In this document: in pieces, positions 23,184-59,243 of the stretch
Position numbering within the stretch: the first letter of the stretch is position 1
Layout of the letters: each line of letters opens with the position of its first letter
Assembly: GCA_040392885.1 (NCBI GenBank)
Contig: JBEBVF010000001.1
Span: forward strand, 27,505-91,504
Reading direction: 5' to 3'
DNA: 64,000 nt
Source of the DNA: Paracoccus sp. (in: a-proteobacteria)
GTDB lineage: Bacteria > Pseudomonadota > Alphaproteobacteria > Rhodobacterales > Rhodobacteraceae
The notes under the pieces: model-generated
Seen by the model: the letters and a program-made list of their open reading frames with translations, nothing else
Database searches by the model: none
What the model was told of the DNA's origin: nothing
Position numbers and translations under genes: made by a program

Positions 23184-24359
23184 ATGCCCCACATGGTCGA
23201 GCTTGTCGACGATCTCGGACGCCTCGGGGATATCGGACCACAATGGGCAGAGCTGCACGCCGCGGCGGGCGGCGGGCCGTTCTCCTCGGCCGAATGGCTG
23301 GCGGCCTGGGCCGCGGCCTATGGCGGTCAGGGGGCGGCGCCCTGCATCGGGCTGGCCTGGTCCGGCGGGCGGCTGCTGGCCGGCATGCCGCTGGGGCTGC
23401 GGCGCGGGCGGGTCTCGACGAGGGGGCCGCGCGTCGGCAAGCTGGTGATGCTCTGCGACGAGCGAGCCGGGTTTCACGAGGTCCTCGCCCTTCCCGGCCC
23501 CGAGGGGCAGGCCGCGGTGGCGGCGCTGCTGGAGGGCTGTCTGGCGCGGGGCGGCTGGGAGTTGGCCGACCTGAACCCGGTTCTGGGCTCGGCCGCGCTC
23601 GACGGGCTGGCGGCGCGCGCGCAGGCGCAGGGCCTTGCCGTCTGGCGGCGCGAGGAGATCCGGCGCGCGGTCTGCGACCTGTCGGCCGGCTGGCAGGGCT
23701 ATCTGGCGCGGCGCAGCGGCAACTTTCGCAAGTCGATCCGCGTGGCGCGCAAGCGGGTCGAGGCGGAGTGGGGCACGCTGCGCATCCTCCGCGGCGGCGA
23801 GCCCGATGCCGATGCCGTGCTGGAACGGGCGCTGGCCGTGTCGGCGCGCTGCTGGAAGGCGCGGATGGGCACCGATATCGGCTCGAATCCGCGGGTGCGC
23901 GCCTTCATGACCGAGATCTGGACCCGGTTCTCGGCCCGCAAGGCGGCGCGCATCCTGCTGCTCAGCATCGGCGGCCGCGATGCCGCAAGCTGTTTCCTGC
24001 TGCGTTCCGGCAATCGCGAATACGGGTTCATCACCGATTTCGACGAGGATTTCGCCGCGCTGTCGCCGGGGCGTGTCATCGTCTCGCATGCGCTGGAAAC
24101 CGCGGCGGCCGACGGGATCGCGGTGTTCGACATGATGCGGCTGACCCCGTTCTGGGAGCGCTTTGCCGATGAGATCCAGAGCTTCGAGCGGCTGCGCCTC
24201 TGCCGGCGGTTCGGGCTGGCCTGGCTGTGGCTGTCGGTCGAGGAACGCGCCCGGCCGCTGGGGCGCGAATTGCGAAAACGTTACCGGCGGCGCAGCCATA
24301 CCCGGATAGCATTCAAGGACAGGTCCAGCGAGAGGGAGCGCAGCGATGAGGATGCGTGA
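23184..24359 (+). CDS. CelD/BcsL-type GNAT acyltransferase (HfsK-like), copy 1
   Basis: GPFSSAEWLAAW, CDLSAGWQGYLARRSGNFRKSIR, FDEDFAALSPGRV, FDMM; Arg-rich C-terminus. Confidence 0.8.
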   Translation: MPHMVELVDDLGRLGDIGPQWAELHAAAGGGPFSSAEWLAAWAAAYGGQGAAPCIGLAWSGGRLLAGMPLGLRRGRVSTRGPRVGKLVMLCDERAGFHEVLALPGPEGQAAVAALLEGCLARGGWELADLNPVLGSAALDGLAARAQAQGLAVWRREEIRRAVCDLSAGWQGYLARRSGNFRKSIRVARKRVEAEWGTLRILRGGEPDADAVLERALAVSARCWKARMGTDIGSNPRVRAFMTEIWTRFSARKAARILLLSIGGRDAASCFLLRSGNREYGFITDFDEDFAALSPGRVIVSHALETAAADGIAVFDMMRLTPFWERFADEIQSFERLRLCRRFGLAWLWLSVEERARPLGRELRKRYRRRSHTRIAFKDRSSERERSDEDA

Positions 24360-25542
24360 TTGGCCGCCGATGCGCCGCGCCGGCCGCATCGGCCTGGCAC
24401 TGGCGCTGCTCGCCGCCCCGGCGGCGGCCGAGACGCTGACCATGGAGCCGGGCGACACGGTGGCGGTGTCGGTGCTGGGGCGCGCGGACCTGAGCGGCAG
24501 CTTTACCCTGCGCTCGGACGGCACGATCTCGATGCATGTCATCGGCGCAACGAAGGCGGCGGGCCTGACCGAGGCCGAGCTGGAGGACAGTCTGGAGGCG
24601 CTGCTGACCGGCGAAATGCAGCTTCCCTCCTCGGTCACCGTCTGGGTGGACAGCTGGCGGCCGGTCTATGTGCTGGGCGGCGTGGTGGCGCCGGGCGCCT
24701 TCGACTATCGGCTGGGCATGACGGTCGAGCAGGCGGTGGCGCTGGCCGGCGGCTTCGATCTGGGCACCGTGACGGGTTCGAGCAGCCTCAGCATGCGGGT
24801 GGTGGATCAGGCCGCCACGCTGGACGAGATCGGCCTGCGCCTGACCGAACTGTCGGTGCGGCGCGCCCGGCTGGAGGCCGAGGCCGCCGAACTCGACAGC
24901 TTCGCCGGACAGGCCGGCGGCGAGGGCGCGGCGGCCGCGATGACGGCCGAGCAGCAGCGCCTGTTCGAGAGCCGCGGGCAGGTGGTGCAAAACCGGCTGG
25001 AGGCGGCGGACGAGGTCAAGGTCCTGGCCGGAAACGAGGCCGATTCGCTGGCCGCGCAGCGCGAGTTGCTGAGCCGGCAGATCGCCGAGCAGGAGGCCAG
25101 CGTCGCGGACCTGCAATCGCTGTTCGACAAGGGGCTGGCCAGTTCCGAACGGCTGCGCGAGGCGCGGCGCGGGCTGACCGCGGACCGCATCGAACTGATG
25201 ACCGCCGCCAGCTTCGAGGCGCGGGCGCGTCAGGAGGTGGCGGCGGCCGATGCCTCGGTCAGCGATTTCATGACCGGCCGCCAGCGCGACATTGCCGAGG
25301 AACTGGCCAATATCGGCAGCCAGCAGCGCGCCGCCGAGCAGGAACTGGCCGCCGCGCAGCATTTCCTGGCCGAATTCGGCCCGCGCGTCGGCTATCTCGA
25401 CGGGGAGCTGGGACCGCCGGTGTTCCGCGTCACCCGCCGCAACGGGGCGGCGACCGAGCTGCTGGAACTGGCCGCCACCGACCCGCTGCGCCCCGGCGAT
25501 CTGGTCGAGGTGGTACGCGAGCCGGCTCAGCCCACCGAGTGA
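24346..25542 (+). CDS. Polysaccharide export protein (OPX; Wza/ExoF-like)
   Basis: Signal peptide, PGDTVAVSV, DGTISMHVIG, VYVLGGVVAPGAFDYR, coiled coil, LRPGDLVEV. Confidence 0.88.
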   Translation: MRMRDWPPMRRAGRIGLALALLAAPAAAETLTMEPGDTVAVSVLGRADLSGSFTLRSDGTISMHVIGATKAAGLTEAELEDSLEALLTGEMQLPSSVTVWVDSWRPVYVLGGVVAPGAFDYRLGMTVEQAVALAGGFDLGTVTGSSSLSMRVVDQAATLDEIGLRLTELSVRRARLEAEAAELDSFAGQAGGEGAAAAMTAEQQRLFESRGQVVQNRLEAADEVKVLAGNEADSLAAQRELLSRQIAEQEASVADLQSLFDKGLASSERLREARRGLTADRIELMTAASFEARARQEVAAADASVSDFMTGRQRDIAEELANIGSQQRAAEQELAAAQHFLAEFGPRVGYLDGELGPPVFRVTRRNGAATELLELAATDPLRPGDLVEVVREPAQPTE

Positions 25543-27530
25543 CCGGCTGCCGCCGCGGCGGGGCCCCGCCCGGCCAGCCGCGCCAGGATGGCGAGGTTGC
25601 GGCTGTTCTCCTCGGGCGTCGAGATCGGCAACAGGAAATAGCGCTGCTTGTAGAATGCCTTCTCGCCCAGATAGATGCCCTCCTCGGCAAAGACCTCGAC
25701 CACCCGTGTCAGGGTATCGGGCAGCTCCACCAGCATGAAGGGTGCCTGGCTGGGCACCACGTCCAGCCCGAGGCCGGTCAGCGCGCCGGCCATGCGGCGA
25801 CGCTCGGCCGTGGTGGTGTCGAAGATGTGCTGCTGATGGGCGGTGGCGCCGAGGGCGGCGGTGGCCGCCACCTCCGACAGGCGCGAGATGGAAAAGATGC
25901 GCTCGCCGCGCTTGAGCCATTCGACATGTTCCGGCCGGCCATAGGCATAGCCGACCCGCGCCCCGGCCAGCGCATAGAACTTGGAGAAGGTGCGCAGGCC
26001 GAGGATCGGCCGGGTTTCGGTGTCGATGAGGTCGCGGGCGGTCACCGCCTCGGGGTCGTCGACATATTCGGCATAGGCCTCGTCCAGCAGGATCGGGATG
26101 CTGTCGGGCACCATGGCGAGGAAGCGGGCGAAACCGGCCTTCTTCAGCACCACCCCTTCGGGATTGGAGGGCGAGATCAGATAGATCAGCCGCGTCGCCG
26201 GGCCGACCGCCGCCGCCACCGCATCGAGGTCGTATTCAAAGCCCGCGCCGGTGCGGCGCAGCGGCACCATGGTCGCATCGAGCGCCCGCTTGCCGACCAG
26301 CATGTTGAAGCCGAACCAGCCCGGCCTGGCCGATACCACCTTGTCGCCGGGCCGGGTCAGCATTTCCAGCAGCCGGTCGAGGATCTCCCACGAGCCGTTG
26401 CCGATGGCAAAGCAGTCGGAGTCCAGCCGCATCCTCGCCGCCAGCGCGGCGCGCAGCGCGCCATGGGTCTCGTCGGGATAGACCGCGGCGAGGCGCGGCG
26501 TCGTCGCGGCGCCCAGCGCCGCCATCACCTCCGGCGCGGCGCCGTAATGGTTCTCGGCCCGGTCATAGATGGTGAAATCGGTATCGGTGCGGGCAACGGT
26601 GCGGCCGTTATGGACATAGACGGGATAGGTGAAGGCCGGCACCTGAGCGATCGGGGTGGCGGTGTGCAGCTCGGCCTCGGCATCGGCCAGGAGCCGCCAG
26701 GCCGAAAGGCTGCGCCCGGAGACGAGGGCCGCCGGCGCGCTGGCCACCCGGATGAAGGCCGGCAGCAGCGAATCGGGTTCCGGCAGCAGGCTGGCCTTCA
26801 GGGTGCCCAGGGTGCGCTCGGTCATGCCGGTATGCACGCTGCCCAGCCGCAGAGTGGTGACGACGATGCCCGAAGCGGCCGCTTCGGCGGCCAGCTGCAT
26901 GGTCAGCCCCTCCAGCCCGTGCTTGGACACCGCATAGGCGGAATGGCCGGGCTGCGGCCGCTCGACCGCGCCGGTCGAGACATTGATGATCCGGCCATGG
27001 CCTTGGGGCAGCATGACCCGCAACGCCGCCTGGGCGGCCCGGAAGGCCCCGCCCAGATTGGCATCGAGGACCGCCATGAACTCGGTGTCCGGCAGATCCG
27101 CGAGGACGGGATGGCCCGCCTCGGCAATGCCGGCATTGTTGATCAGGATGTCGATACCGCCGAGCCGGTCGGCGACCTCGGCAAAGGCGCGCCCGACCTG
27201 ATCGGCGCGGGTCAGGTCGGCGGCGACGGCGAAGGCCCCGCCGCCGATGGCGCTGGCCGCGGCCTCGCCCTCGGCGGCGGAGCGCGACAGGATGGCCACG
27301 CGGCAGCCCTGCGCGGCCAGCCCCCGCGCCACCGCCAGCCCGATGCCGCGATTGCCGCCGGTTACCACGACGCGGCGGCCGGCGAGGCCCGGCTCCGGGT
27401 CCGCGGGCAGCGGCGCCGCCGGTCCAGCGCGGCCGCGCCGCTTGCGCCGGCCGCGGCCGGTGGCCTTGCCGAGCAGATCGAGGGTGACGGCGATATTGCG
27501 GCGCAGGCGGCGCCCCAGGCGGCTGGTCAT
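25527..27530 (-). CDS. SDR oxidoreductase / class I-II (HisC-like) PLP aminotransferase fusion
   Basis: N-half: VVVTGGNRGIG, LINNAG, INVSTG, YAVSK. C-half: YPD, GNGSWE, SPSNPEG, LLDEAYAEY, RTFSKFYALAGARVGY. One uninterrupted frame. Confidence 0.82.
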   Translation of the reverse strand: MTSRLGRRLRRNIAVTLDLLGKATGRGRRKRRGRAGPAAPLPADPEPGLAGRRVVVTGGNRGIGLAVARGLAAQGCRVAILSRSAAEGEAAASAIGGGAFAVAADLTRADQVGRAFAEVADRLGGIDILINNAGIAEAGHPVLADLPDTEFMAVLDANLGGAFRAAQAALRVMLPQGHGRIINVSTGAVERPQPGHSAYAVSKHGLEGLTMQLAAEAAASGIVVTTLRLGSVHTGMTERTLGTLKASLLPEPDSLLPAFIRVASAPAALVSGRSLSAWRLLADAEAELHTATPIAQVPAFTYPVYVHNGRTVARTDTDFTIYDRAENHYGAAPEVMAALGAATTPRLAAVYPDETHGALRAALAARMRLDSDCFAIGNGSWEILDRLLEMLTRPGDKVVSARPGWFGFNMLVGKRALDATMVPLRRTGAGFEYDLDAVAAAVGPATRLIYLISPSNPEGVVLKKAGFARFLAMVPDSIPILLDEAYAEYVDDPEAVTARDLIDTETRPILGLRTFSKFYALAGARVGYAYGRPEHVEWLKRGERIFSISRLSEVAATAALGATAHQQHIFDTTTAERRRMAGALTGLGLDVVPSQAPFMLVELPDTLTRVVEVFAEEGIYLGEKAFYKQRYFLLPISTPEENSRNLAILARLAGRGPAAAAAGHSVG

Positions 27531-28690
27531 GATGTTTCGTCCCTGACGGCGGCCGGGCGGTCGCGGGGGCGCAGCCCGTCGCGGACCGGCCCCGTCAGCC
27601 GGTCGCAGATATCCTCGAAGGCGCGGACGGCGCCCGGGATCAGATAGGGGGTCACCCGCTCGGCGGCGGCCTGCCGCCTGGCCGGGTCGTCGGGCTCGAG
27701 CAGCGCGGCGTGCAGCGCCGCGGCCATGGCCGGCACGTCGCCGGGCGGCACCAGCCGCCCCAGCCTGCCGTCTGCCAGGATGTCGCGCGGGCCGGGGCAA
27801 TCGCTCGCCACCACTCCGGCGCCGGCGGCCAGCGCCTCGACGAGGACATTGCCGAAACCCTCGCGCCGCGAGCCGAGGGCCAGGACCCGGGCCCGCGCCA
27901 GCTCCGGCATCAGCGAGGCGGTGACGCCCGCCAGCGTGATGCGGCCGGCCATGCCCAGCCGGGCGATCAGCGCGGCCAGCCGCGCATGGTCGGGGCCCTC
28001 GCCGAATATCTTCAGATGCAGTTGCGGATGGTCGGGGACCAGGCGGGCCACGGCCTCGATGACGGTCTCATGGCCCTTGTCAGGCACCAGCCGGCCCGCC
28101 GCGACGACCCGGCCGGCGATGCGCGGCGGCGGCGCCCGCGCCAGCCCGGCCAGCAGCTCCGGGGCCAGCACGGGATTGGGCGCGACCGCATGCGCCAGCC
28201 CGTGCAGGCCCAGCGTGTCGATCCAGTCCCGGGCCAGGGTTTCGGTCGGGGCCACCAGCAGGTCCGCCCGCGGATAAAGCGCCCGCACCAGCCCGCGCCG
28301 CGCCCGCGGCCGGCGGGCCGAGGCCAGATAGGCGGCGGCCTGGGTATGTTCGCTGACGATGATGCGCGGACGCCGGGCGCCGCGCCAGGGCAGGGTGGCA
28401 AGCAGCACGGCGATGTTCATCGCATTGGTGCCGGAATAGACCAGATCGACCCGCTGTTGCGCCAGCCAGCGCGCCAGCACCGGCCCCAGCAACAGCGCCC
28501 GCCGCCCGCCGGCATCATGGACCGGAATGTCGGCAGGGAGGCCGTCCAGCAGGGCGCCTTCGGCTTTCCTGAGGAAAAGCAGCGGCGTGAAACGCTCGCG
28601 ATCGAGGCCGACGAGCAGGCGCAACACCACATGCTCGATCCCGCCGGTTTTCAGATGCGGCAACAGGAAGGCAATACGAGTCTTGCGCAT
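27527..28690 (-). CDS. GT4 glycosyltransferase
   Basis: GGIEHV, GRLVPDKG, SRREGFGNVLVEALAAG. Confidence 0.92.
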   Translation of the reverse strand: MRKTRIAFLLPHLKTGGIEHVVLRLLVGLDRERFTPLLFLRKAEGALLDGLPADIPVHDAGGRRALLLGPVLARWLAQQRVDLVYSGTNAMNIAVLLATLPWRGARRPRIIVSEHTQAAAYLASARRPRARRGLVRALYPRADLLVAPTETLARDWIDTLGLHGLAHAVAPNPVLAPELLAGLARAPPPRIAGRVVAAGRLVPDKGHETVIEAVARLVPDHPQLHLKIFGEGPDHARLAALIARLGMAGRITLAGVTASLMPELARARVLALGSRREGFGNVLVEALAAGAGVVASDCPGPRDILADGRLGRLVPPGDVPAMAAALHAALLEPDDPARRQAAAERVTPYLIPGAVRAFEDICDRLTGPVRDGLRPRDRPAAVRDETS

Positions 28691-28812
28691 GGAAACGGCG
28701 AACTCTGTATCAACACATCGTTCACCTCATTCTGCAACAAGCGGCCCCTTCGCGCAACAAGGCGTGAGATTGGCCATTTGGCCATGCGCCGCGGCAGAAA
28801 AGGACGGATACT

Positions 28813-29616
28813 ATGCAGAGATTTTCTGATCATGTGGTCGGGATGGTGCGAGGCAGCCTGAACCTCTCGCGGGTTTCCGCGCTGGCGGCGGTGGCGCTGC
28901 TGTCGCTGGCCACCAATGGCGTGGCGGCGGCGGCCCTGCCGGCCTGCGCGACGCCGCAGCTCTCGGGGTTCGAGACCGGCAGCGATCCCGCCGAGGGTTT
29001 CTCCAGAACCCAGTTGCAGCGCGGCGAGATCACCCTGACCGCCGACCCGGTGGACGGCGGCAACCGGGCCGCCTTCATGAGTGCCGAGCGCAAGCGCGGC
29101 GGCGAGGTGGGCAAGTCCGACCTGATCCTCGCCTTCTCGCCCGTCGGCGCCGGCCGCACCATCGAGATGGGCGGGCGGTTCCTGTTTCCGGCCGAGTCGC
29201 GGCTGGACAGCCTGATTCTGATGGACCTGGAATGCGCCTCCTGCGGGCTCGATACCAATCCCGGCATCCGCCTCTATCTGCGCGACGGCCTGTTGCGGGT
29301 GGATCGCTCCAAGATCGGCATCGAGGAGCCGTTCCTGCCCGGCGTGCCGCTGGCCCTGAAGACCGGCGGCTGGCATGAGATCAGGTGGGAGGTCACGCTG
29401 GGCATCGGCGCCGCCGGGCGCAGCCGGGTGTTCGTCGACGGCAGGCAGGTCCTGGACGCCCAGGGCACGACGCTGCTGAGCCAGGCGGTCGTCAAGCAGT
29501 TCGCCCCGATCAAGGTGCGCGAGCAGGCCGACCGCTTCCAGATCGGGCTGACGGCGAATTCCAACACCACCCGGCAGAGCCTGTATCTGGACGATGTGAG
29601 CATCTGCGCCCGATAG
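28813..29616 (+). CDS. Secreted polysaccharide lyase-like protein (beta-jelly-roll/LamG-like)
   Basis: Signal peptide; LMDLEC, PGIRLYL, GGWHEIRWEV, RVFVDG, YLDDV pattern of jelly-roll lyase-type proteins; lies inside the EPS locus. Confidence 0.6.
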   Translation: MQRFSDHVVGMVRGSLNLSRVSALAAVALLSLATNGVAAAALPACATPQLSGFETGSDPAEGFSRTQLQRGEITLTADPVDGGNRAAFMSAERKRGGEVGKSDLILAFSPVGAGRTIEMGGRFLFPAESRLDSLILMDLECASCGLDTNPGIRLYLRDGLLRVDRSKIGIEEPFLPGVPLALKTGGWHEIRWEVTLGIGAAGRSRVFVDGRQVLDAQGTTLLSQAVVKQFAPIKVREQADRFQIGLTANSNTTRQSLYLDDVSICAR

Positions 29617-29620
29617 GCCC

Positions 29621-30694
29621 TCAGGCCGAGGTGCAGGCCCGGACCATGCGCGCGATGGCGGGTTCGGTCACCCCTTCATGGATCGGCAGGCGCAGGACGT
29701 GGCGTTTCAGCGCCGCGGCCTCGGGGAAGCCCGACAGGTCGATGGCCGGGTGAAAGCGCCGCCAGAAGCGCACCGGCTCGATCCCGGCGCGGGCAAGAGC
29801 GGCAAACACCCGGTCCGGCTCGGCGGTCCAGAGGGGGAAATAGGCCGGGCAGGCGCCCGCGGGCAGGACCTCGATCAGCGGCCGCAACGCGGGCATGGCC
29901 GGAAGCCGGGCGGCCAGCGCGCGATAGTTCCGCCGTCGCACGGCGGCCACCCGCTCGTGATCGACATGCCCGAGCATGAAGCGGGTAATGCGCGAGGCGT
30001 GATCGCGCCGCGCCTCGTCACCGAAACCGGCGACGGCATCCCAGCGGTCGAGATCCGCGCCGCCCCGATCCCGCGGCCCGCTGCGGACCCGGCGGCGCAA
30101 GGCATTGGCCGAAAGCGATTTCAGTGCCGCCAGCGTGTGCCGCAAGGGCGGACGGCCCAGCGCGGGCAGCACCGCGTCCCGGCGCATCCACAGCGCGCCA
30201 CCATCCGGCACCCCCAGCGTCTTGACCAGCGAGAACACCGCCATGTCGCCGGCGCGTCCCAGCGGCGCCCCATCCGCGCCCCGCGAATACAGGCCCAGCG
30301 CCAGATCCTCGACCAGCAGCGCACCGGCCGCGCCGGCCAGATCGGCCAAAGCTGCCAGCGGCTGTTCCCGGCCGAAATAATGGATGACATGGATGGCGCC
30401 GCCACCCGCGCGCAGCAGCCGCGCCACATCGTCGAGATCGGCGCTCAGGTCGCGCCCCAGCCGATAGGGCACCGGCCGGCCGCCGGCGGCCAGGATGGCA
30501 TCAACCTCGGAGCCGCAATGCCATGCCGGCACCAGCACCCGCGCGCCACCCCGCAACCCGAGCGCACGCAGCCCGGCCCAGATCGCGGTGCGGCCATTGG
30601 CGGTCAGATGCGTGCGGGCATCGCCGAAGGGAAATGGCACCGGGCTGCGGCCGAAGGGGCCGGGCGCCGGGGATTTGGCGATGATACGGGTCAC
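29621..30694 (-). CDS. Short DegT/DnrJ-type PLP enzyme
   Basis: GRTAIWAGL, VLVPAWHC, VIHYFG, VEDLAL, FSLVKTLGVPDGG (PLP lysine), LRLPIH; GTG start overlaps the flippase stop (GTGA). Confidence 0.75.
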   Translation of the reverse strand: MTRIIAKSPAPGPFGRSPVPFPFGDARTHLTANGRTAIWAGLRALGLRGGARVLVPAWHCGSEVDAILAAGGRPVPYRLGRDLSADLDDVARLLRAGGGAIHVIHYFGREQPLAALADLAGAAGALLVEDLALGLYSRGADGAPLGRAGDMAVFSLVKTLGVPDGGALWMRRDAVLPALGRPPLRHTLAALKSLSANALRRRVRSGPRDRGGADLDRWDAVAGFGDEARRDHASRITRFMLGHVDHERVAAVRRRNYRALAARLPAMPALRPLIEVLPAGACPAYFPLWTAEPDRVFAALARAGIEPVRFWRRFHPAIDLSGFPEAAALKRHVLRLPIHEGVTEPAIARMVRACTSA

Positions 30695-32307: not shown

Positions 32308-32531
32308 GCGCGCCCCGTGGCGCTGCCGCATGTCCCCGGCCGGCGGCATGGCCGGAGGACGAGCCTCGCCGGTTTTCGGACCCGATGGTGCATGATGCGC
32401 GGCTCCAACCTCCCTCGGCGTGGCCTATTCTTAATGCATTCATGAAACGCTGTTAATTCTTCTGTGCGACTCGCCGGTATTAGTGTAACACAATACCTCT
32501 GGACCCAGTAAGGGTCCTTATTCGGGAGTGT

Positions 32532-33671: not shown

Positions 33672-33710
33672 GGCTGCAATCGACGCATTCCCCGGAAACG
33701 GAGTGGCCAG

Positions 33711-35123: not shown

Positions 35124-35126
35124 CCC

Positions 35127-36416: not shown

Positions 36417-37795
36417 TCGGGCTGGGCCTGCGTCTTTCCGGGCTGGCCGCGGGTTTCCTGCTGCTGTCGCTGATCATCGTGGCGATGGGTTCGGCCTCGC
36501 TGATGCTGTCGGCGGCGCTGGTGCCCGGCCTGGTCATCGGCGCCGCCATTGCCTGCCAGCCATTTGCCGGGCTGGTGCTGCTGGTGGTCTTTGCCCAGCT
36601 CGACGCGGTGGCCAACATCGTCTCGCAGGCACTGCCGATCTCGCTCTACAAGCTGCTGACGCTGGCGGTGCTGGGCGGGTTCGGGCTGATGGCGGTGGCT
36701 GGCCCGCGCCCCCTGCGGCTGGGCGAACGCTCGCGCGAGATGCAGGTCACGGTGCTGTTCGCGCTGGCCATGGCGCTGTCCTTCCTGCTTTGCGAATACA
36801 AGGGCGCGGCCATGGGGCGGCTGATCGGGTTCTACAGCGTGATCCTGCTGTTCTTCCTGATCTCGGTCCTGGTCGATTCGCCGCGCCGGCTGGAGGTGCT
36901 GGTCTGGGCGCTGGTGCTAACCGGGCTAGTCTCCTCGGTGCTGGTGCTGCTCGACACCTTTCTCGGTGTGCGGCTGGTCTCGACCTCGGCGGCGGCGGCG
37001 ACGGCGCAGTTCAACGGCCAGGCCCGTTCGGCGGGCGGGTCCGACTACAACCCCACCACGGCCGCGCATATGCTGATGGCGACCACGATCATCGCCGGGG
37101 TGCTGCTGGTGCGCCATCCCCGCTGGCGGGCGCTGAGCGGGCTGGCCTTCGCCCTCGGCGTGCCGGCGCTGGTCTTCACCTTTGCCCGCAGCGCCGCCAT
37201 CGCCTTCGCCGTGGTGGCGCTGGTCTTCGTCTGGCGCCAGCGCCGGCACCGGCTGTTTCCGTTCCTGCTCATCCTCGGCCTGATCGCGCTGGGCGCGGGG
37301 CTGTTCTTCGTGCCGCCGCTGTTCTGGGCGCGGATGCTGACGCTGCTGGATTTCGGCCTCGACCGGACGCTGCTGCGGCGGGTGTCCTACAACATCATCG
37401 GCTTCGAGCTGTGGGTGCAGCACCCGGTCCTGGGCATCGGCCCGGGCAATTTCCCGCAATATTACGCCGGGCCGGATTTCCGCTGGTTCCCCGGGCGCGA
37501 GCCGATGCCCCGGCAGCTGCACAACACCTATATGGAGCTGCTGACCGAGACCGGGCTGGTCGGGCTGGGCCTGTTCCTGGGCGTCATGCTGGCCTGCCTG
37601 CGCAAGGCCGCGCAGGTGGCGCGGCGCGGCGCCGGCCCGGTGGCGCCGCTGGCCGAGGCGCTGGCCTATGCCTTTGCAGGCTTCCTGCTGGCCTCGGTCT
37701 TCATGCCCAACGAGGACACCAAGTTCATGTGGCTCCTGCCCGGCCTGTGCCTGGCCGCCTGGCGGCTGGCGCGCCCGGAAACGGAAGGGGGCTGA
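36413..37795 (+). CDS. Wzy-like polymerase / O-antigen ligase family protein
   Basis: About 12 TM segments; TFARSA, HPVLGIGPGNF, LHNTYMELLTETGLVG. Confidence 0.88.
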   Translation: MIGLGLRLSGLAAGFLLLSLIIVAMGSASLMLSAALVPGLVIGAAIACQPFAGLVLLVVFAQLDAVANIVSQALPISLYKLLTLAVLGGFGLMAVAGPRPLRLGERSREMQVTVLFALAMALSFLLCEYKGAAMGRLIGFYSVILLFFLISVLVDSPRRLEVLVWALVLTGLVSSVLVLLDTFLGVRLVSTSAAAATAQFNGQARSAGGSDYNPTTAAHMLMATTIIAGVLLVRHPRWRALSGLAFALGVPALVFTFARSAAIAFAVVALVFVWRQRRHRLFPFLLILGLIALGAGLFFVPPLFWARMLTLLDFGLDRTLLRRVSYNIIGFELWVQHPVLGIGPGNFPQYYAGPDFRWFPGREPMPRQLHNTYMELLTETGLVGLGLFLGVMLACLRKAAQVARRGAGPVAPLAEALAYAFAGFLLASVFMPNEDTKFMWLLPGLCLAAWRLARPETEGG

Positions 37796-37796
37796 G

Positions 37797-39014
37797 ATGC
37801 GCCTGGCGATCATCGTCACCGAATATCCCAAGACCACCGAGACCTTCATCCTGCGCGACGTGATGACCTTTCTGGCCGCCGGGACCGACCTGCGCCTCTA
37901 TCACCTGACCCCCTATCGCCGGACCGAGATCCTGCACGACTTCGCTGCCCCGACCCGGGGGCTGGCACGGCATGTCGGGCTGGCCGGCTGGCGCGGTATC
38001 GGCGCCGCGGCGCGCCGCCCCGGCCCGACGGCGGCCCGCGCCGCCCGGATCATCCGCGAGCAGGCGGCCGAGCCGCTGCTGATGGCGAAATCGCTGGCTT
38101 TGCTGCCGCAGGCCAGCGCCATTGCCGCCGAGCTGCGCGACTGGGGCGCCGATCACGTCCATGCCGAATTCGCCGGCCATCCGGCGACGGCGGCCTGGAT
38201 CGTCCATCACCTGACCGGCATTCCCTACAGCGTCAGCTGCCGCGCCCATGACATCTTCCGCACCCAGCGGCTGCTGGAGCAGAAGCTGGGCGATGCCGCC
38301 GTGGTGCGCACGGTCAGCGACTATGCCCGCGCCTTCCTGCTGGAGCGCGTGCCCGGCCTCGATCCCGCCAAGGTCGAGGTGATCCATTCCAGCCTCGACA
38401 TCGCCCATATTCCGCTGGAGGACCCGCCGCCGCAGGCGCCGTTCCACATCCTCTATGTCGGGGCCCTGCAGGTCAGGAAGGGCGTAGACGTGCTGCTGCG
38501 GGCGCTGGCCGGGCTGGCCATTCCCGACTGGCATTGCACAGTGGCCGGCGACGGGCCGGAACGCACCCGGCTGGAGGCGCTGGCCGCCGGCCTCGGCCTG
38601 GCGCAGCGGGTGCGTTTCCTCGGCAGGCAGGGCTTCGAGCACGTCGCCGGGCTCTATCGCGAGGCCAGCGTGATCGTCGCGCCCTCGGTGATCGGGCCGA
38701 AGGGGCGGACCGAGGGCATCCCCAATGTGATGATCGAGGCGCTGGCCTTCCGGCGCCCGGCGATCTCCACCACCGTTTCCGGCATCCCGGAACTGATCAT
38801 CGACGGGGTGACCGGGCGGCTGGTGGCGCCCGGTTCGGTCGAGGCGCTGCGCGCGGCCCTCGCGGCGGTCCATGCCGACCCCGCCGCCGCCTGGGCCATG
38901 GCCTGCGCCGGGCGGCGCCATGTCGAGGCCGGGTTCGACCTGCGCCGCAACGCCGCCCGGCAACTGGTGCTGTTCGAGGCCCATCGCGCCCCCGGCTTGC
39001 GGAGGGCGGGATGA
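37797..39014 (+). CDS. GT4 glycosyltransferase (WcaL-like)
   Basis: YPKTTETFI, HVHAEFA, VGALQVRKG, EGIPNVMIEALA. Confidence 0.9.
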   Translation: MRLAIIVTEYPKTTETFILRDVMTFLAAGTDLRLYHLTPYRRTEILHDFAAPTRGLARHVGLAGWRGIGAAARRPGPTAARAARIIREQAAEPLLMAKSLALLPQASAIAAELRDWGADHVHAEFAGHPATAAWIVHHLTGIPYSVSCRAHDIFRTQRLLEQKLGDAAVVRTVSDYARAFLLERVPGLDPAKVEVIHSSLDIAHIPLEDPPPQAPFHILYVGALQVRKGVDVLLRALAGLAIPDWHCTVAGDGPERTRLEALAAGLGLAQRVRFLGRQGFEHVAGLYREASVIVAPSVIGPKGRTEGIPNVMIEALAFRRPAISTTVSGIPELIIDGVTGRLVAPGSVEALRAALAAVHADPAAAWAMACAGRRHVEAGFDLRRNAARQLVLFEAHRAPGLRRAG

Positions 39015-40165
39015 GCCTCTTGCTGTTCTGGCTGCTGCTTTTCCTCGTCCTGTGGTCGCTTTTCGGCTATGGGCTGGTCTGGATGGGGCTGGCGCGGCTG
39101 TTCGGCCGCAGGGAGGCCCCCCTGCCCGAGACCCCGCTGCGCGTGACCATGCTGATCGCCGCGCGCAACGAGGCCGCGATCATCCGCCACAAGCTGGAAA
39201 CCGTGCTGGCGCAGGATACCGGGCCGCATCGCCTGGACATCCTGGTGATCTCGGACGGGTCCGAGGACGACACCCTCGCCCAGGCGCTGTCGCTGGGCGC
39301 GCCGGAGGTCGCCGCCTTCCAGACCGCGACCCATGGTGGCAAGGCGCGGGCACTCACGGCGGGGCTGGCGCGCATCACCGCCGATGTGGTGGTGTTTTCC
39401 GATGCCAACAGCCTGCTGGTGCCGGGGGCGCTGCGCCATCTGCTGCGCCCCTTTGCTCGCGCGCAGGTCGGCGGCACCTGTGGCCAGCCGCAGCCGCAGG
39501 CCGCGCGCGGCGGCTGGATCGCCCGCGTCGAGGCGCTGTTCTGGCGCTATGACAGCGGCCTGAAGGCGGCCGAAAGCGCGCTGGGCGGGGCGGTGTCGGC
39601 GCAGGGCACGCTTTACGCGATGCGCCGCGCGCTGGTGCCGGCGGTCATCCCCGACGCCATGGCCGATGATTTCTACATCTCTGCGCAGGCACCGGTGGCC
39701 GGCCGGCGGCTGGTTCTGGCGCCGCAGGCCGTCGCCATCGAGGCCGTCACCGCCCGCACCGGCGACGAGTTCATGCGCCGCGTGCGCTCGACCGAGCGGG
39801 GCTGGCGCGCACTCTGGGCGATGCGGGGCCTGATGAACCCGTTCCGGCACGGGCTCTATGCGCTGCAACTGATCTGCCACAAGCTGCTGCGGCGGCTGGT
39901 GGCGTTCCTGCTGCCGCTGCTGCTGGCGGTCAATATGCTGGTGGCGGCGGAAGGCTGGTTCCCGGCCGCCACGCTGGCGCTTCAGGTCGCGGTCTATCTG
40001 CTGGCGGCGGCGGCGATCCTGCTGCCGGGCGCGCGGCGCCTGCCGGGGGCGGGACAGGCGGCGTTCTTCGTGCTGGGCCATGTTGCCATGGCCTGGGGCA
40101 TCATCCGGGCGGGCCTCGGCGTGCGCTCCAGCCGCTGGGTGCCGGTGCGGGAGGACGCGCCATGA
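39011..40165 (+). CDS. GT2 glycosyltransferase (membrane, PgaC/HfsG-like)
   Basis: IAARNE, SDGSED, GKARAL, FSDANS, DDFY, RRVRS; N- and C-terminal TM segments. Confidence 0.9.
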   Translation: MSLLLFWLLLFLVLWSLFGYGLVWMGLARLFGRREAPLPETPLRVTMLIAARNEAAIIRHKLETVLAQDTGPHRLDILVISDGSEDDTLAQALSLGAPEVAAFQTATHGGKARALTAGLARITADVVVFSDANSLLVPGALRHLLRPFARAQVGGTCGQPQPQAARGGWIARVEALFWRYDSGLKAAESALGGAVSAQGTLYAMRRALVPAVIPDAMADDFYISAQAPVAGRRLVLAPQAVAIEAVTARTGDEFMRRVRSTERGWRALWAMRGLMNPFRHGLYALQLICHKLLRRLVAFLLPLLLAVNMLVAAEGWFPAATLALQVAVYLLAAAAILLPGARRLPGAGQAAFFVLGHVAMAWGIIRAGLGVRSSRWVPVREDAP

Positions 40166-41295
40166 GCCGGCTGCCGGAGACGCGGGTGCTGACCGACTGG
40201 CCGGCCTTCGAGGCGGTGGCGGGCGACTGGGCCGCGCTGCATGCGCGCGCGGGCGGCGCCCTCTATTCCTCGCATCACTGGCTGGCGGCGATGCAGGCTG
40301 CCTTCGGCCTGCCCGGCGCCATGGCCTTCGTCACCCTCTGGCAGGGCGGGCGCATGGTGGCGGCGGCGCCGATGGTGGCCCGGCCGGAACGGCTGTCCAA
40401 GCTGGCGCCGTTCTATCGCCCGCCGGTCCTGCGGCTGATGGCCTGCAAATATTCCGGCTTTGTCGAGATGCTGGCGGAGACCGACACCCTGCGCGCCCGC
40501 CTGGCCGAGGCGGTCCATGATGTGGCCGCCGGCCGGGTCATCGCGCTCGACCCGCTGAAGGCGGGCGCGGCCACCGACCAGATCCTGACCGTGCTGGGCG
40601 AATGCGGCCGCACCGTCACCCAGGCGCCGCGTTTCCGCAGCGTCACCATCCCGGCCCGCCGCACCAGCGCCGAGCATCTGGCAGGCCGCAAGGCCGGGTT
40701 CCGCAAGGGGCTGCGCAAGGCGCAGCGGCGGCTGGAGGCATCGGGTGGCCGTTTCGAGGAGGTGCGCCACCTCGACCCCGCCATGATGGCGCGCATCGAG
40801 GCGATCTCGGCGCGCTCGTGGAAAAGCGCGGCCGGCACCAGCCTTGCCGCCGATCCCGGCAATGCGCGCTTCCTGGCCGAGATCAGCACCCGGCTGGCGC
40901 CGGATGCCATGATCCTCAGCATCGACGGGGTGGACCGGGCCTTTGCCGCCTCGATCCGCTACGGCATGACGGATTACATGATCTGGACGGAATTCGACGA
41001 GACGGTGGCCGAGCTGTCGCCCGGCCGGCTGGTGGTATGGGAGCTGATCTGCTGCGTTCTGGACCGGCGCGACGACCGGGCGGTGCAGGATCTGGTGCGG
41101 CGCACGCATTTCACCGGCGAGATGGGCGACGAAGGCTATGCCCTGCTGGCGGCGCGGGCCATGCCGCGGCGGGGCGCTGCGCATCTGCTCGGCGCTGCCG
41201 AGGCGCGGCTGCGCGCCATCGCCGGCCACCGCCGTTTCGGCCGCCGCAAGGGGGTGCGGCGGGCCGATGTCAACATGCTGGAGGCGGAGGCGTGA
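40162..41295 (+). CDS. CelD/BcsL-type GNAT acyltransferase, copy 2
   Basis: LYSSHHWL, RKAGFRKGLRKAQRRL, FDETVAELSPGRL; Arg-rich C-terminus. Confidence 0.78.
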   Translation: MSRLPETRVLTDWPAFEAVAGDWAALHARAGGALYSSHHWLAAMQAAFGLPGAMAFVTLWQGGRMVAAAPMVARPERLSKLAPFYRPPVLRLMACKYSGFVEMLAETDTLRARLAEAVHDVAAGRVIALDPLKAGAATDQILTVLGECGRTVTQAPRFRSVTIPARRTSAEHLAGRKAGFRKGLRKAQRRLEASGGRFEEVRHLDPAMMARIEAISARSWKSAAGTSLAADPGNARFLAEISTRLAPDAMILSIDGVDRAFAASIRYGMTDYMIWTEFDETVAELSPGRLVVWELICCVLDRRDDRAVQDLVRRTHFTGEMGDEGYALLAARAMPRRGAAHLLGAAEARLRAIAGHRRFGRRKGVRRADVNMLEAEA

Positions 41296-42374
41296 GCGGG
41301 GGCGAGATCCGCGTCGACATCAGCCGGTCCCTGTCCGCTGCCGAGGCCGGGGAGGCCGCCGCCTTCCTGGAGGCCAGCCCCGCCGCCAGCCACCTGCAGC
41401 GCCCGGACTGGCCGGACTATCTCGATCCGGCGCCGCGGCACCGCTATCTGGTGCTGCGGGCGCGGGCGGGCGGGGCACTGGTCGGGTTGGCGCTGGCGCG
41501 GCTCGGCCGGCTGGCGCCGGGCTTTCACCTGGCCGTCCTGCGCCGCGGCCCGGTCACGCATGCGGTGGCCGACCTGGCGCGGGTGGTGCCGGCCATGGCG
41601 CAGGCGCTGCGCGGGGAGGGCGTCTGCTCGCTGGTCGTGAATCCGCGCTGGCAGGAGGCCGAGGCCGAGGCCGCCACCGCCCTGCTGGCCGGGCTCAGCG
41701 CGCAGGAGCTGCCGCGCGCCGGCCAGTCCATGCACCGCGCCACGCTGCTGGTCGACCTGTCGGGCACGCCCGAGGCGCTGACCGCGCGCCTCAAGCCGCG
41801 CTGCCGGCGCCAGATCAACCGCGCGGCCGCGCTCGGGCTGGAGGTGCGCCCGGCCGCCAGCCTCGACGAGGTGTTGGCCTTCGAGCCGGTGTTTCGCGAT
41901 TTCCACCGCCGGCGCGGTCTGGGCACCGAGGCGATTCCGCCGCCGGCGCAGCAATGGGCACTGACCCGGGATCGCGGCGCCTTGCTGCTGGGCTATTACC
42001 GGGGGCGGCCGGTCTGCGGCCATGGCATGCTGGCCGATGGCCCGCGCGCCACCTGGCTGTCCCTCGCCAGCGCCGAGGGCCTGCACGACCTGCCGCATGA
42101 CTATGCGCTGATCTGGCAGGCGCTGCTGGCCGCGCAGGCGCAGGGCCTGCGCTGGTTCGACATGGCCGGCGCGCCCAGCCGGCGCGATGCCGACCCGGCC
42201 GGCCCCGACCGGGGCCAGATGAACCGCCAGCAGTTCAAGACCGCCTTCGCTCCAGCCCATGTCGAGCTGGTGCCGATGATGGCGCTGGGGCTGCGCCAGC
42301 CTGCCCATGACCTGCTGTTCGGCCTGCGCCAGCACTATCGCGGCTGGAAGGCCGGGCGGAGGCCGCAGCCATGA
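41292..42374 (+). CDS. FemAB/FemX-like transferase
   Basis: HLQRPDW, LRRGPV, TLLVDL...LKPRCRRQINRA..LGLEVR, WQALLAA...G.RWFDMAG, QFKTAF; GTG start overlaps previous stop. Confidence 0.75.
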   Translation: MSGGEIRVDISRSLSAAEAGEAAAFLEASPAASHLQRPDWPDYLDPAPRHRYLVLRARAGGALVGLALARLGRLAPGFHLAVLRRGPVTHAVADLARVVPAMAQALRGEGVCSLVVNPRWQEAEAEAATALLAGLSAQELPRAGQSMHRATLLVDLSGTPEALTARLKPRCRRQINRAAALGLEVRPAASLDEVLAFEPVFRDFHRRRGLGTEAIPPPAQQWALTRDRGALLLGYYRGRPVCGHGMLADGPRATWLSLASAEGLHDLPHDYALIWQALLAAQAQGLRWFDMAGAPSRRDADPAGPDRGQMNRQQFKTAFAPAHVELVPMMALGLRQPAHDLLFGLRQHYRGWKAGRRPQP

Positions 42375-43291
42375 GCCGCCCGGTCCCGCTGTTCATCCTC
42401 GGCCTGCAACGCTCCGGCACCACCTTTGCCGCCAATCTGCTGGCCGCGCATCCACAGATCGCCGCCGTGGCCCATGCCCGCCATCGCGGCGTGCATGAAA
42501 GCGTGTTCTTCTCGCATTTCGCGCGGCTGTTCGGGGACTGGTCGGAGGCCGGGGCACGGGCCGCGGCGGTGGCGGCGTTCCTCGACAGCGACTATTTTCG
42601 CCTGACCGGGCTGGATGCCGCGGCCACCGGCGCGGCGATGCAGGCGGCGCAAACGCCCGGCGCGGCGTTCCGGCAGGTGATGGACACCCTGGCGCAGCAG
42701 GGCGGCCGCCGGGTCTGGATCGAGAAATCCCCCCATCACACGCTGCTGGCCGACGAGATCGCGGATATGCTGCCCGATGCGCATTTCCTGTGCATCGCCC
42801 GCGAGACGGCGGATTTCACCCGCTCGCGGCTCTGGGCCTATGGGCGGCAGCCGCCGCGCTATCCGGGGCGGGCGAGGGTGATCCTGCGCGCCTGCCTGTC
42901 GAACGCGTTCCACCAGCGCTTCATGGCCGGCCTGCCGGTGCGGATCGGGGCGGACCGGGTGCATGCCGTGGGCTATGCGGCGCTGGCACGCGACCCGGAT
43001 GCGGCACTGGCGCCGCTGCTGAGAGTGCTGGGGCTGGCGCCGCTGGCCGGGAGGCGGCCGGATTTCGCGGCCAATAGCAGCTTTGCCAGCGCGGCCAGCC
43101 GCGCCGCCGCGCTGGGGCGCAGCGACCGCGCGCTGATCGCCGCCGGGGCGGCGCTGGCCGGCGCCGTGCCGCAGCCGCTCCTTGCCGCCTTGCAGCGCCG
43201 GGCGGCGCGGCGGCGCCCCCGCGCGTTCCCCGCCTGGGTGCGCACCCCGGACATCTCCGGCCCCGCGCCGGGACAGGAGGGCAGCCGATGA
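42371..43291 (+). CDS. PAPS-dependent sulfotransferase
   Basis: LFILGLQRSGTT (5'-PSB loop), ESVFF, WIEKSP.H, R...D...S (3'-PB region). Confidence 0.85.
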   Translation: MSRPVPLFILGLQRSGTTFAANLLAAHPQIAAVAHARHRGVHESVFFSHFARLFGDWSEAGARAAAVAAFLDSDYFRLTGLDAAATGAAMQAAQTPGAAFRQVMDTLAQQGGRRVWIEKSPHHTLLADEIADMLPDAHFLCIARETADFTRSRLWAYGRQPPRYPGRARVILRACLSNAFHQRFMAGLPVRIGADRVHAVGYAALARDPDAALAPLLRVLGLAPLAGRRPDFAANSSFASAASRAAALGRSDRALIAAGAALAGAVPQPLLAALQRRAARRRPRAFPAWVRTPDISGPAPGQEGSR

Positions 43292-44406
43292 CCCCGCCAC
43301 CCCGCCCGCGCCCGCTGCGGATCGAACGGATCACCGCCATCGCGGATCTCGACGCCCTGGCGGCGCCCCTGGCCGAGCTGGCCGGGGCGGCGGATGCGCT
43401 GGTCTTCAGCCATCCGGCCTTTTTCCTGCCCTGGAGCCGCGCGGCCATCGCCAATGGCCAGCGTCCGGACTGCCTGGCCCTCTATTCCGGCACCACGCTG
43501 TGCGGTTTCCTGCCGTTCTTCGCCCGCCGCGACCGGCATGCGCTGCTGGGGCGCGTGCTGGGGCCGCCGCGCTATGGCTCGTCACCGCCTTTCGACCTGC
43601 TGCTGGCCGGGGTGGACGAGACAGCCGCCATCGCCGCGCTGGGCGCCGAGGTCCGGCGCCATTCATGGATCGGGCAGGACATCCGCGCGGATGTGGCCGG
43701 CTCGCGCCTCGGCGCGGGCTGGGCGGACTGGTTCGCCGGCCGGGGCCATGCCGTGGAGCGGGCTGCCGGGCCGGGTTACTACCTGGTCCGCAATGCCGGC
43801 AGCGTGGCACAGTTCAAGGCCGCCCTGCCGGGCCGGCAGCGCCGCGAATGCGAACGGCACCTGCGGCGGCTGGCCGGAATCGGCGGTTTCCGGCTGGTCC
43901 GTTCGGGCGATGCGGTCGGCGGGGCGCTGGAGGCGATGCAGGGCATCGTCATGCAAAGCTGGAAGGGCAGCGCCGAGATGGCCCGCCGCGGCTGGACCAT
44001 GCTGCATTCCGTGGCGCTGTCGATGGCCGAGGCCGGCATGCTGCGCCTGTGGCTGGTCGAGGTCGAGGCGCGGCCCATCGCCTATCTGATGGAATTCGAG
44101 GACCGCCACCGCCATCGCCACGCCTTCCACAACGCCCAGGTCGAGGCCGACGACCATCTCGGCCCCGGCAAGTCGGTGATCTATACCAGCCTGTGCGCCG
44201 CGCAGGAGGAGGGCGTTCCGGTCTATGAGTTCTGGGGCTATCGCGACTATCTGCGCAGGTTCTCGAACGGGATTCGCGAGACCCGCTCGGTCCGCATCGA
44301 CAATCCGGGGTTGCTGCAACGGCTGCAACGCAGCCTGCTCCCCGCCCGGCGCGCGGGCGGCGCCGATGCCGTGGGGACCGGGGGGGACGGCCCGTGCGCC
44401 GGTTGA
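43288..44406 (+). CDS. CelD/BcsL-type GNAT acyltransferase, copy 3
   Basis: VFSHPAFFLPW, RQRRECERHLRRL, LWLVEVEARPIAY, HLGPGKSV, YEF.G. Confidence 0.78.
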   Translation: MTPPPRPRPLRIERITAIADLDALAAPLAELAGAADALVFSHPAFFLPWSRAAIANGQRPDCLALYSGTTLCGFLPFFARRDRHALLGRVLGPPRYGSSPPFDLLLAGVDETAAIAALGAEVRRHSWIGQDIRADVAGSRLGAGWADWFAGRGHAVERAAGPGYYLVRNAGSVAQFKAALPGRQRRECERHLRRLAGIGGFRLVRSGDAVGGALEAMQGIVMQSWKGSAEMARRGWTMLHSVALSMAEAGMLRLWLVEVEARPIAYLMEFEDRHRHRHAFHNAQVEADDHLGPGKSVIYTSLCAAQEEGVPVYEFWGYRDYLRRFSNGIRETRSVRIDNPGLLQRLQRSLLPARRAGGADAVGTGGDGPCAG

Positions 44407-58528: not shown

Positions 58529-58550
58529 GCTTGTCCTCCGCCGGTGGGTG

Positions 58551-58710
58551 ATGCCCGGCCGAGGGTAGCCAACCCCCTCGCCCGGTGAAAGCCCGGCCGG
58601 CCATGCCTTCGGGGGGCACGGGAACCTTCGGGAGCGTCCCGGACAGATAACCCTGCTTCAATGGGCTCCGACCCAAGATGAAACGGAAGCCGCCGCACCT
58701 ATATGGTCCG
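58551..58710 (+). ncRNA. Candidate structured non-coding element, family unassigned
   Basis: gaggg-tagccaacc-ccctc hairpin; two CC(TTCG)GG tetraloops at 58606-58613 and 58625-58632; gggctccgaccc hairpin; no credible ORF. Confidence 0.45.
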
Positions 58711-59243
58711 CCGGTAACCCGCCTCGAGACTCCCTCACACTGTCTCGTTGGTGGGTGGGAGCCCGTCCTGCGCGCGAGGTCATGCGCCTCGATTTCGTGA
58801 GGCGGAAGGGCTCGACCGGGTGAGGTCCCGCGGTTCTCACCGATGGTCTCACCAAAACCGGTCGGGCCTGCGATTTCCGCCACCTGATCGAGGCGCATCG
58901 AGGACGCATTGCGAGTCGTGACAGACAAGACAGTGCTGGTGCCGCCCCAGGAAACAGGAGAGGCGAGCCCCGCCCGGCAACCGGCCGGCATGGCACGGTG
59001 ATCCTGCGGGTCACGAATCTCCCGGGCAGGGCGGTGATGACCACTCGCCGTCAAGAAACACCCCGGAGCGGATTGCCAAGTAATTGACGGCATTACAAAG
59101 GCAGAATTGATCGCGGGAATGATCCGCAGCCGCCCCATCCGCAGCACTGAAGAAATTTTCTCTTCCGCATCATGTCCTTCTGACGCGGAGGCGGGACATC
59201 CTTTACGCCGGGCTCAGGCTTTGCTTGACTCGTTGATGGCCGT

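Follow-up and report, generated by a model that had tools for sequence, protein, structure and literature searches.

The question raised here is what a Paracoccus sp. assembles with a cluster of 17 genes, eight of which encode a machine for polysaccharide assembly and export (a priming transferase, two GT4 and one GT2 glycosyltransferases, a MurJ-like flippase, a Wzy_C protein, a co-polymerase and an outer-membrane polysaccharide export (OPX) protein), while the remaining nine have tailoring or accessory roles. The cluster occupies positions 23184-44406 of a 64,000-nucleotide stretch of contig JBEBVF010000001.1, called the window below, and its genes are designated g1 to g17 (Table 1). A first-pass annotation had described it as a single coherent, heavily tailored exopolysaccharide (EPS) locus of the Wzx/Wzy type and had termed it holdfast-like. 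The former description is supported by the present analysis; the latter, taken as a statement of kinship, is not. We consider it probable that the locus directs Wzx/Wzy-dependent synthesis of an acidic heteropolysaccharide, the repeat unit of which is de-N-acetylated, sulfated and acylated or aminoacylated in the cytoplasm, and then flipped, polymerised, exported and trimmed by a lyase. Although uncharacterised, the locus has an ordinary architecture for the Wzx/Wzy class, to which it belongs, and is not a Caulobacter-type holdfast system.

Results and Discussion

Extent and coherence of the locus

As the window is approximately 70% G+C, genes were called by third-position G+C (GC3), which yielded 17 open reading frames with a coding-frame GC3 of 0.81-0.93; inspection of start codons refined five of the models (g3, g6, g12, g13 and g15). 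The genes fall into the units g1-g2 (+), g4-g3 (-), g5 (+), g7-g6 (-) and g8-g17 (+), and eight of the junctions are 4-nucleotide start/stop overlaps, which indicates operons. On either side lie genes of unrelated metabolism and transport (an Ldh_2 dehydrogenase, a major facilitator superfamily transporter, an AAA_28 protein, a DUF924 protein, a CoA transferase, and ATP-binding cassette (ABC) transport and housekeeping genes), and the borders given above are therefore taken to be correct. GC3, Pfam and the collinear homologous loci described below all indicate that the 17 genes proposed earlier are real and tightly coupled. Every family named in the first reading has backing from Pfam, which taken by itself is weakest for g5 and g9. 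None of the 17 proteins reaches an NCBIfam equivalog cut-off, a result in keeping with the earlier statement, made with reserve, that no named locus with this combination of genes is known. Across the whole window (1-64000, the interval 58540-58890 included) no Rfam family attained its gathering score, and a scan of 28.4-33.8 kb for promoters and terminators was near background and uninformative. A role in defence was also considered and rejected, since a PADLOC scan of five of the locus proteins returned no real match.

Conservation and distribution

Searches by tblastn, in which all 17 proteins were compared with candidate loci, detected the locus at 40-72% identity in two Paracoccaceae metagenome-assembled genomes (MAGs; L001 and L002) and in a Cypionkella MAG (L003/L091). 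A collinear set is found in Leisingera thetidis, Leisingera sp. ANG-Vp, genome G320 and the Cypionkella MAG, the cultured carriers having been reached through homologues of g5. The cultured L. thetidis holds 17 of 17 genes in identical order, at about 763-795 kb of CP109787.1, and ANG-Vp holds 16 of 17, the fusion gene g3 alone being missing, from the whole genome as well as from the locus. Collinear conservation at 33-72% amino-acid identity rules out chance as its origin. Gene order is permuted in L001 and L002, where g11-g17 run straight into g1-g2, followed by g3/g4 and g5 (L002, 7940-21920; L001, 712-7763); as g17 abuts g1-g2 in these genomes, both ends of the locus form one unit. Neither g6 nor g7 was found in the 22 kb examined of L002, which lies near a contig end.

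In a census of one genome per genus of the window's own family (400 other genera), a homologue of the Wzy gene g11 was present in 6 of 400, and exceeded 50% identity in two. Another species of the same genus (G032) has neither the Wzy gene nor the left flanking Ldh_2 gene, and the chromosomal region is thus variable within the genus. Three distant versions (G244, G199 and G051), in which Wzy is 36-44% identical, keep the priming transferase, both GT4 enzymes, the co-polymerase, the CE4 deacetylase, Wzy, the GT2 enzyme and the sulfotransferase; in G199 and G244, the only two whose unassigned reading frames were scanned, a gene for a MurJ-like flippase was detected as well. These versions differ in how many FemX-type genes they have; the lyase occurs in G244 only, and none of the three has the DegT-like gene or the fusion. 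This shared set argues that the core of the locus is an assembly line for a four-sugar repeat together with the deacetylase and the sulfotransferase, and that the rest is accessory. The locus is accordingly rare, is conserved in a few Paracoccaceae, and matched no characterised locus; yet with cultured Leisingera among its carriers it is less singular than was first implied. DNA nearly identical to that of g11-g13 is present in the metagenomes of 12 studies, whose samples were of sediment, sludge, wastewater, compost, digester, landfill, soil and insect origin.

The assembly and export machine

All five classes of component expected of such a machine are present by Pfam and NCBIfam, and the earlier claim of a full Wzx/Wzy machine stands by family for the priming enzyme, flippase, polysaccharide co-polymerase (PCP) and OPX protein. 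For the polymerase it is tentative: g11 is a putative polymerase, a role deduced from the presence of the PCP and OPX proteins. The priming transferase g8 has partial matches in NCBIfam, and its C-terminal tail of approximately 120 residues (33309-33668) has no Pfam match at E<=10; the suggestion that this tail is PilZ-like was unsupported by hidden Markov models (HMMs). The flippase g7, which scores 138 bits against TIGR01695 (cut-off 235) and 27 bits against Polysacc_synt_3, is by its sequence MurJ-like rather than a classical Wzx, and would fill the Wzx role. The PCP call for g9, at 20 bits against GNVR (cut-off 27.7), is backed by a topology of two transmembrane helices and the partial TIGR01005 match; its cytoplasmic tail of approximately 185 residues (34566-35120) has neither a Pfam match at E<=10 nor a Walker A/P-loop. 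The N-terminal sequence of g2 has a cleavable signal peptide and no lipobox cysteine, and behind its Poly_export and SLBB domains is an HlyD/AprE-like coiled-coil hairpin (TIGR01843, partial; PF25994 in the Leisingera orthologues). Among the glycosyltransferases, g12 is the best conserved gene of the locus (63-72% identity among orthologues).

The assignment of g11 bears on whether a polymer is made at all. The Wzy_C family of Pfam is that of the O-antigen ligases, g11 scores best in NCBIfam against 'putative O-glycosylation ligase, exosortase A-associated' (77 bits), and it matches TfpM weakly; g11 could on this basis be a WaaL/PglL-type ligase that attaches a decorated oligosaccharide to lipid A-core or to proteins. 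All of these scores are below the family cut-offs, however, and the same conserved unit holds a PCP, an OPX protein and no other polymerase candidate, while the secreted lyase implies a polymer. We judge the ligase assignment to be quite improbable.

Matches of a similar kind raise the question of an XrtA/PEP-CTERM (exosortase)-associated EPS locus, a class whose members also carry FemAB-like and deacetylase genes. Weak matches were recorded to TIGR03027 (g2), TIGR03019 (g15), TIGR03088 and TIGR03097, and every one of these is far below its cut-off (TIGR03027, 59 versus 180; TIGR03019, 20 versus 260; TIGR03097, 77 versus 188). No exosortase (PF09721) was detected in the genome, which is 94.6% complete. 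This explanation is largely refuted, and we assign it next to no likelihood.

Deacetylase and sulfotransferase

The CE4 motifs of g10 (HFDDGY, PHGVDH, WPQNR and RVH) are complete and invariant. The location of its catalytic domain determines whether an amine that it exposes could be re-acylated by cytoplasmic enzymes. A periplasmic location, which would bar re-acylation, had been considered on the strength of one hydropathy peak and was rejected, as five orthologues display a two-helix hairpin with basic residues on both sides; in distant orthologues, too, the N-terminal hydrophobic region spans 40-45 residues, which fits two helices. By the positive-inside rule, the hairpin and its flanking basic residues place the catalytic domain, as a prediction, in the cytoplasm.

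The predicted cytoplasmic sulfotransferase g16 has an intact loop for 3'-phosphoadenosine 5'-phosphosulfate (PAPS), RSGTT, and an orthologue in every version of the locus. An adenosine 5'-phosphosulfate (APS) kinase is encoded on another contig (C139), outside the locus, and PAPS synthesis is thus supplied from elsewhere in the genome. The two features that mark a sulfated-EPS locus of the synechan type, an in-locus PAPS sulfotransferase and a supply of PAPS, are therefore both found. A search of the PDB with g16 gave marginal matches (CurM/TPST) and no clue as to N- versus O-sulfation.

Of the tailoring genes, only those for the deacetylase and the sulfotransferase are present in every locus version, and the two enzymes are both predicted to be cytoplasmic. 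It may be asked whether they act in the manner of the animal N-deacetylase/N-sulfotransferase, which would yield a bacterial polymer of the glycosaminoglycan (GAG) type, heparan-like and N-sulfated. In such a scheme the amine of a hexosamine would be freed on the lipid-linked repeat and N-sulfated beside a uronic acid, the remaining amines would be acylated or aminoacylated by the FemX-fold enzymes, and the chain would be trimmed by the heparin-lyase-I-family enzyme. Sulfated GAG-like polymers are known from sludge and marine isolates (PMC10483923, PMC7356697), and the locus would offer a genetic basis for them if this were true. We nonetheless think it improbable.

Tailoring transferases of the FemX fold

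The first-pass annotation listed three BcsL-type GNATs and a FemAB-like protein. Acetyltransf_6 was confirmed in all four (g1, g14, g15 and g17), which are better described as tandem GNATs of the FemX fold; the FemAB match of g15 is weak, as is its TIGR03019 match. The AlphaFold model of g1 (pLDDT 93.4) is a tandem GNAT with a long basic C-terminal helix, and its orthologues in five loci (L001-L003, L082 and L083) are 43-55% identical. Its best Foldseek matches are FemX, the aminoacyl-tRNA-dependent Sbb17 and Sba18 (peptide/amide synthases) and the synthase domain of MprF, with CoA-using tandem GNATs ranking lower. The TM-scores with FemX, Sbb17 and Sba18 are 0.51-0.60 when normalised to the query and 0.67-0.73 when normalised to the target. 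The tandem GNAT fold is thus common to g1, FemX/FemAB, Sbb17/Sba18 and MprF, whereas sequence identity is just 12-15%, and the sequence profile of g1 reaches the FemX-type structural neighbours only marginally. That the four enzymes carry out tRNA-dependent aminoacylation is possible, though we would sooner expect that they do not. In a tree of the GNATs, g1 pairs with g14 as its sister paralogue, and g17 falls in a separate deep clade; the depth and conservation of these clades suggest that the paralogues have distinct jobs.

The pairing of a CE4 deacetylase with FemX-fold GNATs, together with a basic C-terminal helix like the tail of HfsK (PMC5362036) and a full Wzx/Wzy machine, is what lends the locus its likeness to holdfast synthesis, and one might propose a conserved alphaproteobacterial polar adhesin of the holdfast or unipolar-polysaccharide (UPP) type, in which HfsH/HfsK-like tailoring tunes the cohesion of a GlcNAc-rich glue. 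Holdfast-like pathways across the Alphaproteobacteria share HfsJ, a WecG-family (GT26) transferase acting on undecaprenyl-diphosphate-linked glucose (PMC11340318, from the Hershey laboratory). No WecG/HfsJ-type glycosyltransferase (PF03808) was found in the locus or in the 94.6%-complete genome, although a Caulobacter control genome matched. Furthermore, g8 scores 88 bits against HfsE (NF050817), far below the cut-off of 750; no hfa-type anchor genes lie nearby; and a sulfotransferase and a lyase are not features of holdfast loci. Neither in Caulobacter nor in Hirschia are hfsK and its paralogues located within the hfs locus, and the reaction of HfsK is still unestablished (PMC8449245). Given the absence of WecG, a primer unlike HfsE and the position of hfsK, the resemblance is limited to the tailoring pair, and we regard membership of the holdfast family as highly unlikely.

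Lyase, DegT-like enzyme and fusion protein

The secreted protein g5 scores 24.6 bits against PF14099 (cut-off 29.9), which is weak by Pfam alone, and its homologues are named as heparin lyase I family proteins or polysaccharide lyases. A sequence search of the PDB gave no match, and a fold model (pLDDT 89.9) was used instead; Foldseek ranked the PL20 glucuronan lyase 2zzj best (E 5e-11), followed by alginate lyases of families PL36, PL7 and PL14. The model suggests that g5 acts as a polysaccharide lyase and, as a lyase of this kind needs uronic acid, that the polymer backbone contains it. A gene for a nucleotide-sugar 6-dehydrogenase is present elsewhere in the genome. For g6, matches in the PDB include TlmJ, the Kdo8N transaminase and perosamine synthase, and the lysine aligned to that which binds pyridoxal phosphate (PLP) is retained.

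Profile matches of g3 in the PDB are HisC, a phenylalanine aminotransferase and FabG. The fusion is rare: 77 clusters were found among 5.8 billion proteins, with approximately 35 full-length fusions, mostly from Paracoccaceae, and a profile scan of GTDB species genomes likewise gave approximately 35 fusion-bearing loci. FemX-type GNATs, frequently in tandem arrays of two to four, accompany the fusion in 22 of 33 such loci; GT4 enzymes are frequent neighbours too, and seven loci have a PIG-L-type deacetylase close by. These associations suggest that the fusion may supply an amine-bearing group for FemX-type chemistry. It is missing from ANG-Vp, G320, G244, G199 and G051, all of them carriers of the locus. 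A strict coupling, in which the fusion would feed one specific GNAT, had been considered and is weakened by ANG-Vp, where four GNATs are kept with no fusion; the link between them is as such not obligatory.

Two further observations concern the fusion family. One orthologue (G061:C3:17064-19034) has a single in-frame TAG, and may be a pseudogene or the product of an assembly error. A second recurrent type of locus (among L005-L034) has the fusion, three tandem FemX-type GNATs that form three orthologous clades, a PIG-L/LmbE-like deacetylase, two or three GT4 enzymes, a UXS-like short-chain dehydrogenase/reductase (SDR) and, in some cases, an ABC-transporter pair; its hosts include Fuscovulum, Rhodobacter sp. 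SW2, Pelagimonas, Roseovarius and Ca. Aalborgicola, among others.

A proposed pathway

Gene families, catalytic motifs, folds, predicted topology, the PAPS supply and conservation as a unit together form the basis of the following scheme. At the cytoplasmic face, g8 would prime undecaprenyl phosphate and three sugars would be added by g4, g12 and g13. The hairpin-anchored g10 would strip N-acetyl groups from hexosamine, g16 would transfer sulfate from housekeeping PAPS, and free amines or hydroxyls would be acylated or aminoacylated by g1, g14, g15 and g17. With the optional fusion g3, g6 could provide an amino sugar or else a substituent that bears an amine. The unit would then be flipped by g7, polymerised by g11 under g9 and exported through g2, and the secreted g5 may trim or release chains. 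We infer the order of steps, the substrates and the product, which would be secreted or capsular with a repeat of about four sugars, and its role as matrix or capsule from the sequence features listed. The earlier proposal of de-N-acetylation, re-acylation or aminoacylation, and sulfation is likewise feasible in view of the CE4 motifs, the two-helix anchor that would hold the catalytic domain of g10 on the same side as the soluble GNATs and the sulfotransferase, the FemX fold of g1 and the APS kinase; the actual substituents are putative, as is any role of the polymer as an adhesin.

Several points weigh against the scheme. The Wzy_C domain is common to O-antigen ligases and O-oligosaccharyltransferases, and the jelly-roll fold is used by lectins as well as by lyases. 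The OPX protein lacks the lipobox and a Wza-type C-terminal helix, no outer-membrane beta-barrel partner for it is encoded in the locus, and the PCP call for g9 is weak by HMM. The topology of g10 is read from hydropathy and the positive-inside rule only, and none of the four GNATs strictly depends on g3, ANG-Vp having kept all of them. Last, evidence of transcription consists of a few short exact contigs in RNA-labelled runs, overlapping g3, g7/g8 and g12; this is a weak hint that the locus is transcribed, and DNA carry-over may account for it.

Table 1. Genes of the locus, with positions in the 64,000-nucleotide window and the principal evidence for each assignment (bit scores are against the family named).
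Gene	Assignment	Position	Strand	Evidence
g1	FemX-fold tandem GNAT (Acetyltransf_6, HfsK/CelD type)	23184..24359	+	PF13480 92.8 bits, E 3e-26
g2	OPX export protein	24346..25542	+	Pfam PF02563 Poly_export 51 bits, PF10531 SLBB 37 bits; orthologues 36-48% identity
g3	FabG-like classical SDR + HisC-like fold-type I aminotransferase fusion, 667 aa	25527..27530	-	Pfam adh_short + Aminotran_1_2
g4	GT4 glycosyltransferase a	27527..28690	-	Pfam Glyco_trans_1_4, Glycos_transf_1, Glyco_transf_4; kept in all locus versions
g5	Secreted beta-jelly-roll protein, putative polysaccharide lyase, PF14099 family	28813..29616	+	Signal peptide, fold, named homologues
g6	Divergent DegT/DnrJ/EryC1 PLP enzyme, sugar aminotransferase type	29621..30694	-	PF01041 56.7 bits, E 3e-15
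g7	MOP-superfamily flippase, MurJ-like	30691..32349	-	Pfam MurJ 131 bits, E 5.5e-38; 11 hydrophobic segments
g8	Small polyprenyl-phosphate sugar-1-phosphate transferase, priming	32532..33671	+	Bac_transf 129 bits (gathering cut-off 27), E 2e-37
g9	Polysaccharide co-polymerase without kinase	33711..35123	+	Two transmembrane helices, weak GNVR, partial TIGR01005
g10	CE4 de-N-acetylase, PgaB-N-like	35127..36416	+	Pfam PF01522 Polysacc_deac_1; PgaB matches in NCBIfam and PDB
g11	Wzy_C membrane protein, taken as repeat-unit polymerase	36413..37795	+	Wzy_C 67 bits, E 2e-18; 12 hydrophobic segments
g12	GT4 glycosyltransferase b	37797..39014	+	Pfam GT4; EpsE-like 150 bits, below cut-off
g13	Membrane-anchored GT2	39011..40165	+	Glyco_tranf_2_3, Glycos_transf_2, Glyco_transf_21; transmembrane segments; orthologues 46-72% identity
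g14	FemX-fold tandem GNAT	40162..41295	+	PF13480 55 bits, E 1e-14; orthologues 33-51% identity
g15	FemAB-like tandem GNAT	41292..42374	+	PF13480 32.5 bits, E 1e-7; FemAB 24.7 bits (weak); orthologues 50-58% identity
g16	PAPS-type sulfotransferase, cytoplasmic (predicted)	42371..43291	+	Sulfotransfer_3 93.5 bits, E 3e-26
g17	FemX-fold tandem GNAT	43288..44406	+	PF13480 45 bits, E 1.5e-11; orthologues 30-53% identity

Comparison with known systems

In the literature covered, which excludes most subscription journals, there is no description of the Leisingera locus and no characterised counterpart of the one described here. The chromosomal EPS module of P. inhibens (exoY PGA1_c05260) was considered as a counterpart and set aside, as it differs in composition, with six glycosyltransferases, one of the COG1922/WecG type among them, and a COG2244 Wzx. 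The nearest sequence relative of g10 in the PDB and NCBIfam is PgaB, the deacetylase of poly-N-acetylglucosamine (PNAG), with which it has metal-binding and catalytic motifs in common. PgaB, however, belongs to a synthase-dependent pathway and is a lipoprotein of the periplasm, whereas g10 is hairpin-anchored, predicted to be cytoplasmic and part of a Wzy pathway; moreover, g10 (68 bits against a PgaB cut-off of 322) and g13 (52 bits against a PgaC_IcaA cut-off of 422) do not qualify as members of the PNAG (pga) system. The XrtA/PEP-CTERM loci are also predicted to make decorated EPS and, as here, combine a FemAB-like transferase with Wzx/Wzy-type parts, but the exosortase is missing from the present genome.

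The hfs system of Caulobacter crescentus (PMC5362036, PMC8449245) has in common with the locus a Wzx/Wzy pathway, a CE4 deacetylase (HfsH) and a FemX-like tandem GNAT (HfsK) which, like g1, bears a basic C-terminal extension. The likeness of the deacetylase and the GNATs is at the level of family and fold only, and the present locus differs in having four GNAT genes within it and in the addition of a sulfotransferase, a lyase, a DegT-like enzyme and an SDR-aminotransferase fusion.

The cultured, non-pathogenic Leisingera carriers, together with the naturally fusion-less variant, make the substituents, their donors (acyl-CoA or aminoacyl-tRNA) and the position of the sulfate (N or O) open to direct experiment. 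The organism itself is found widely in metagenomes of sludge, compost and sediment, settings where sulfated anionic polymers matter for aggregation.

With regard to sulfation, a parallel by description is synechan (xss) of Synechocystis PCC 6803 (PMC8205485), a sulfated EPS made by a Wzx/Wzy locus in which cytoplasmic sulfotransferases are embedded. The xss locus belongs to another phylum and has other transferases, whereas here a single sulfotransferase is always paired with a CE4 deacetylase, and enzymes of the FemX fold are added. The locus family thereby joins HfsK-type (FemX-fold) transferases with genes for a putatively sulfated, partly de-acetylated EPS outside the cyanobacteria.

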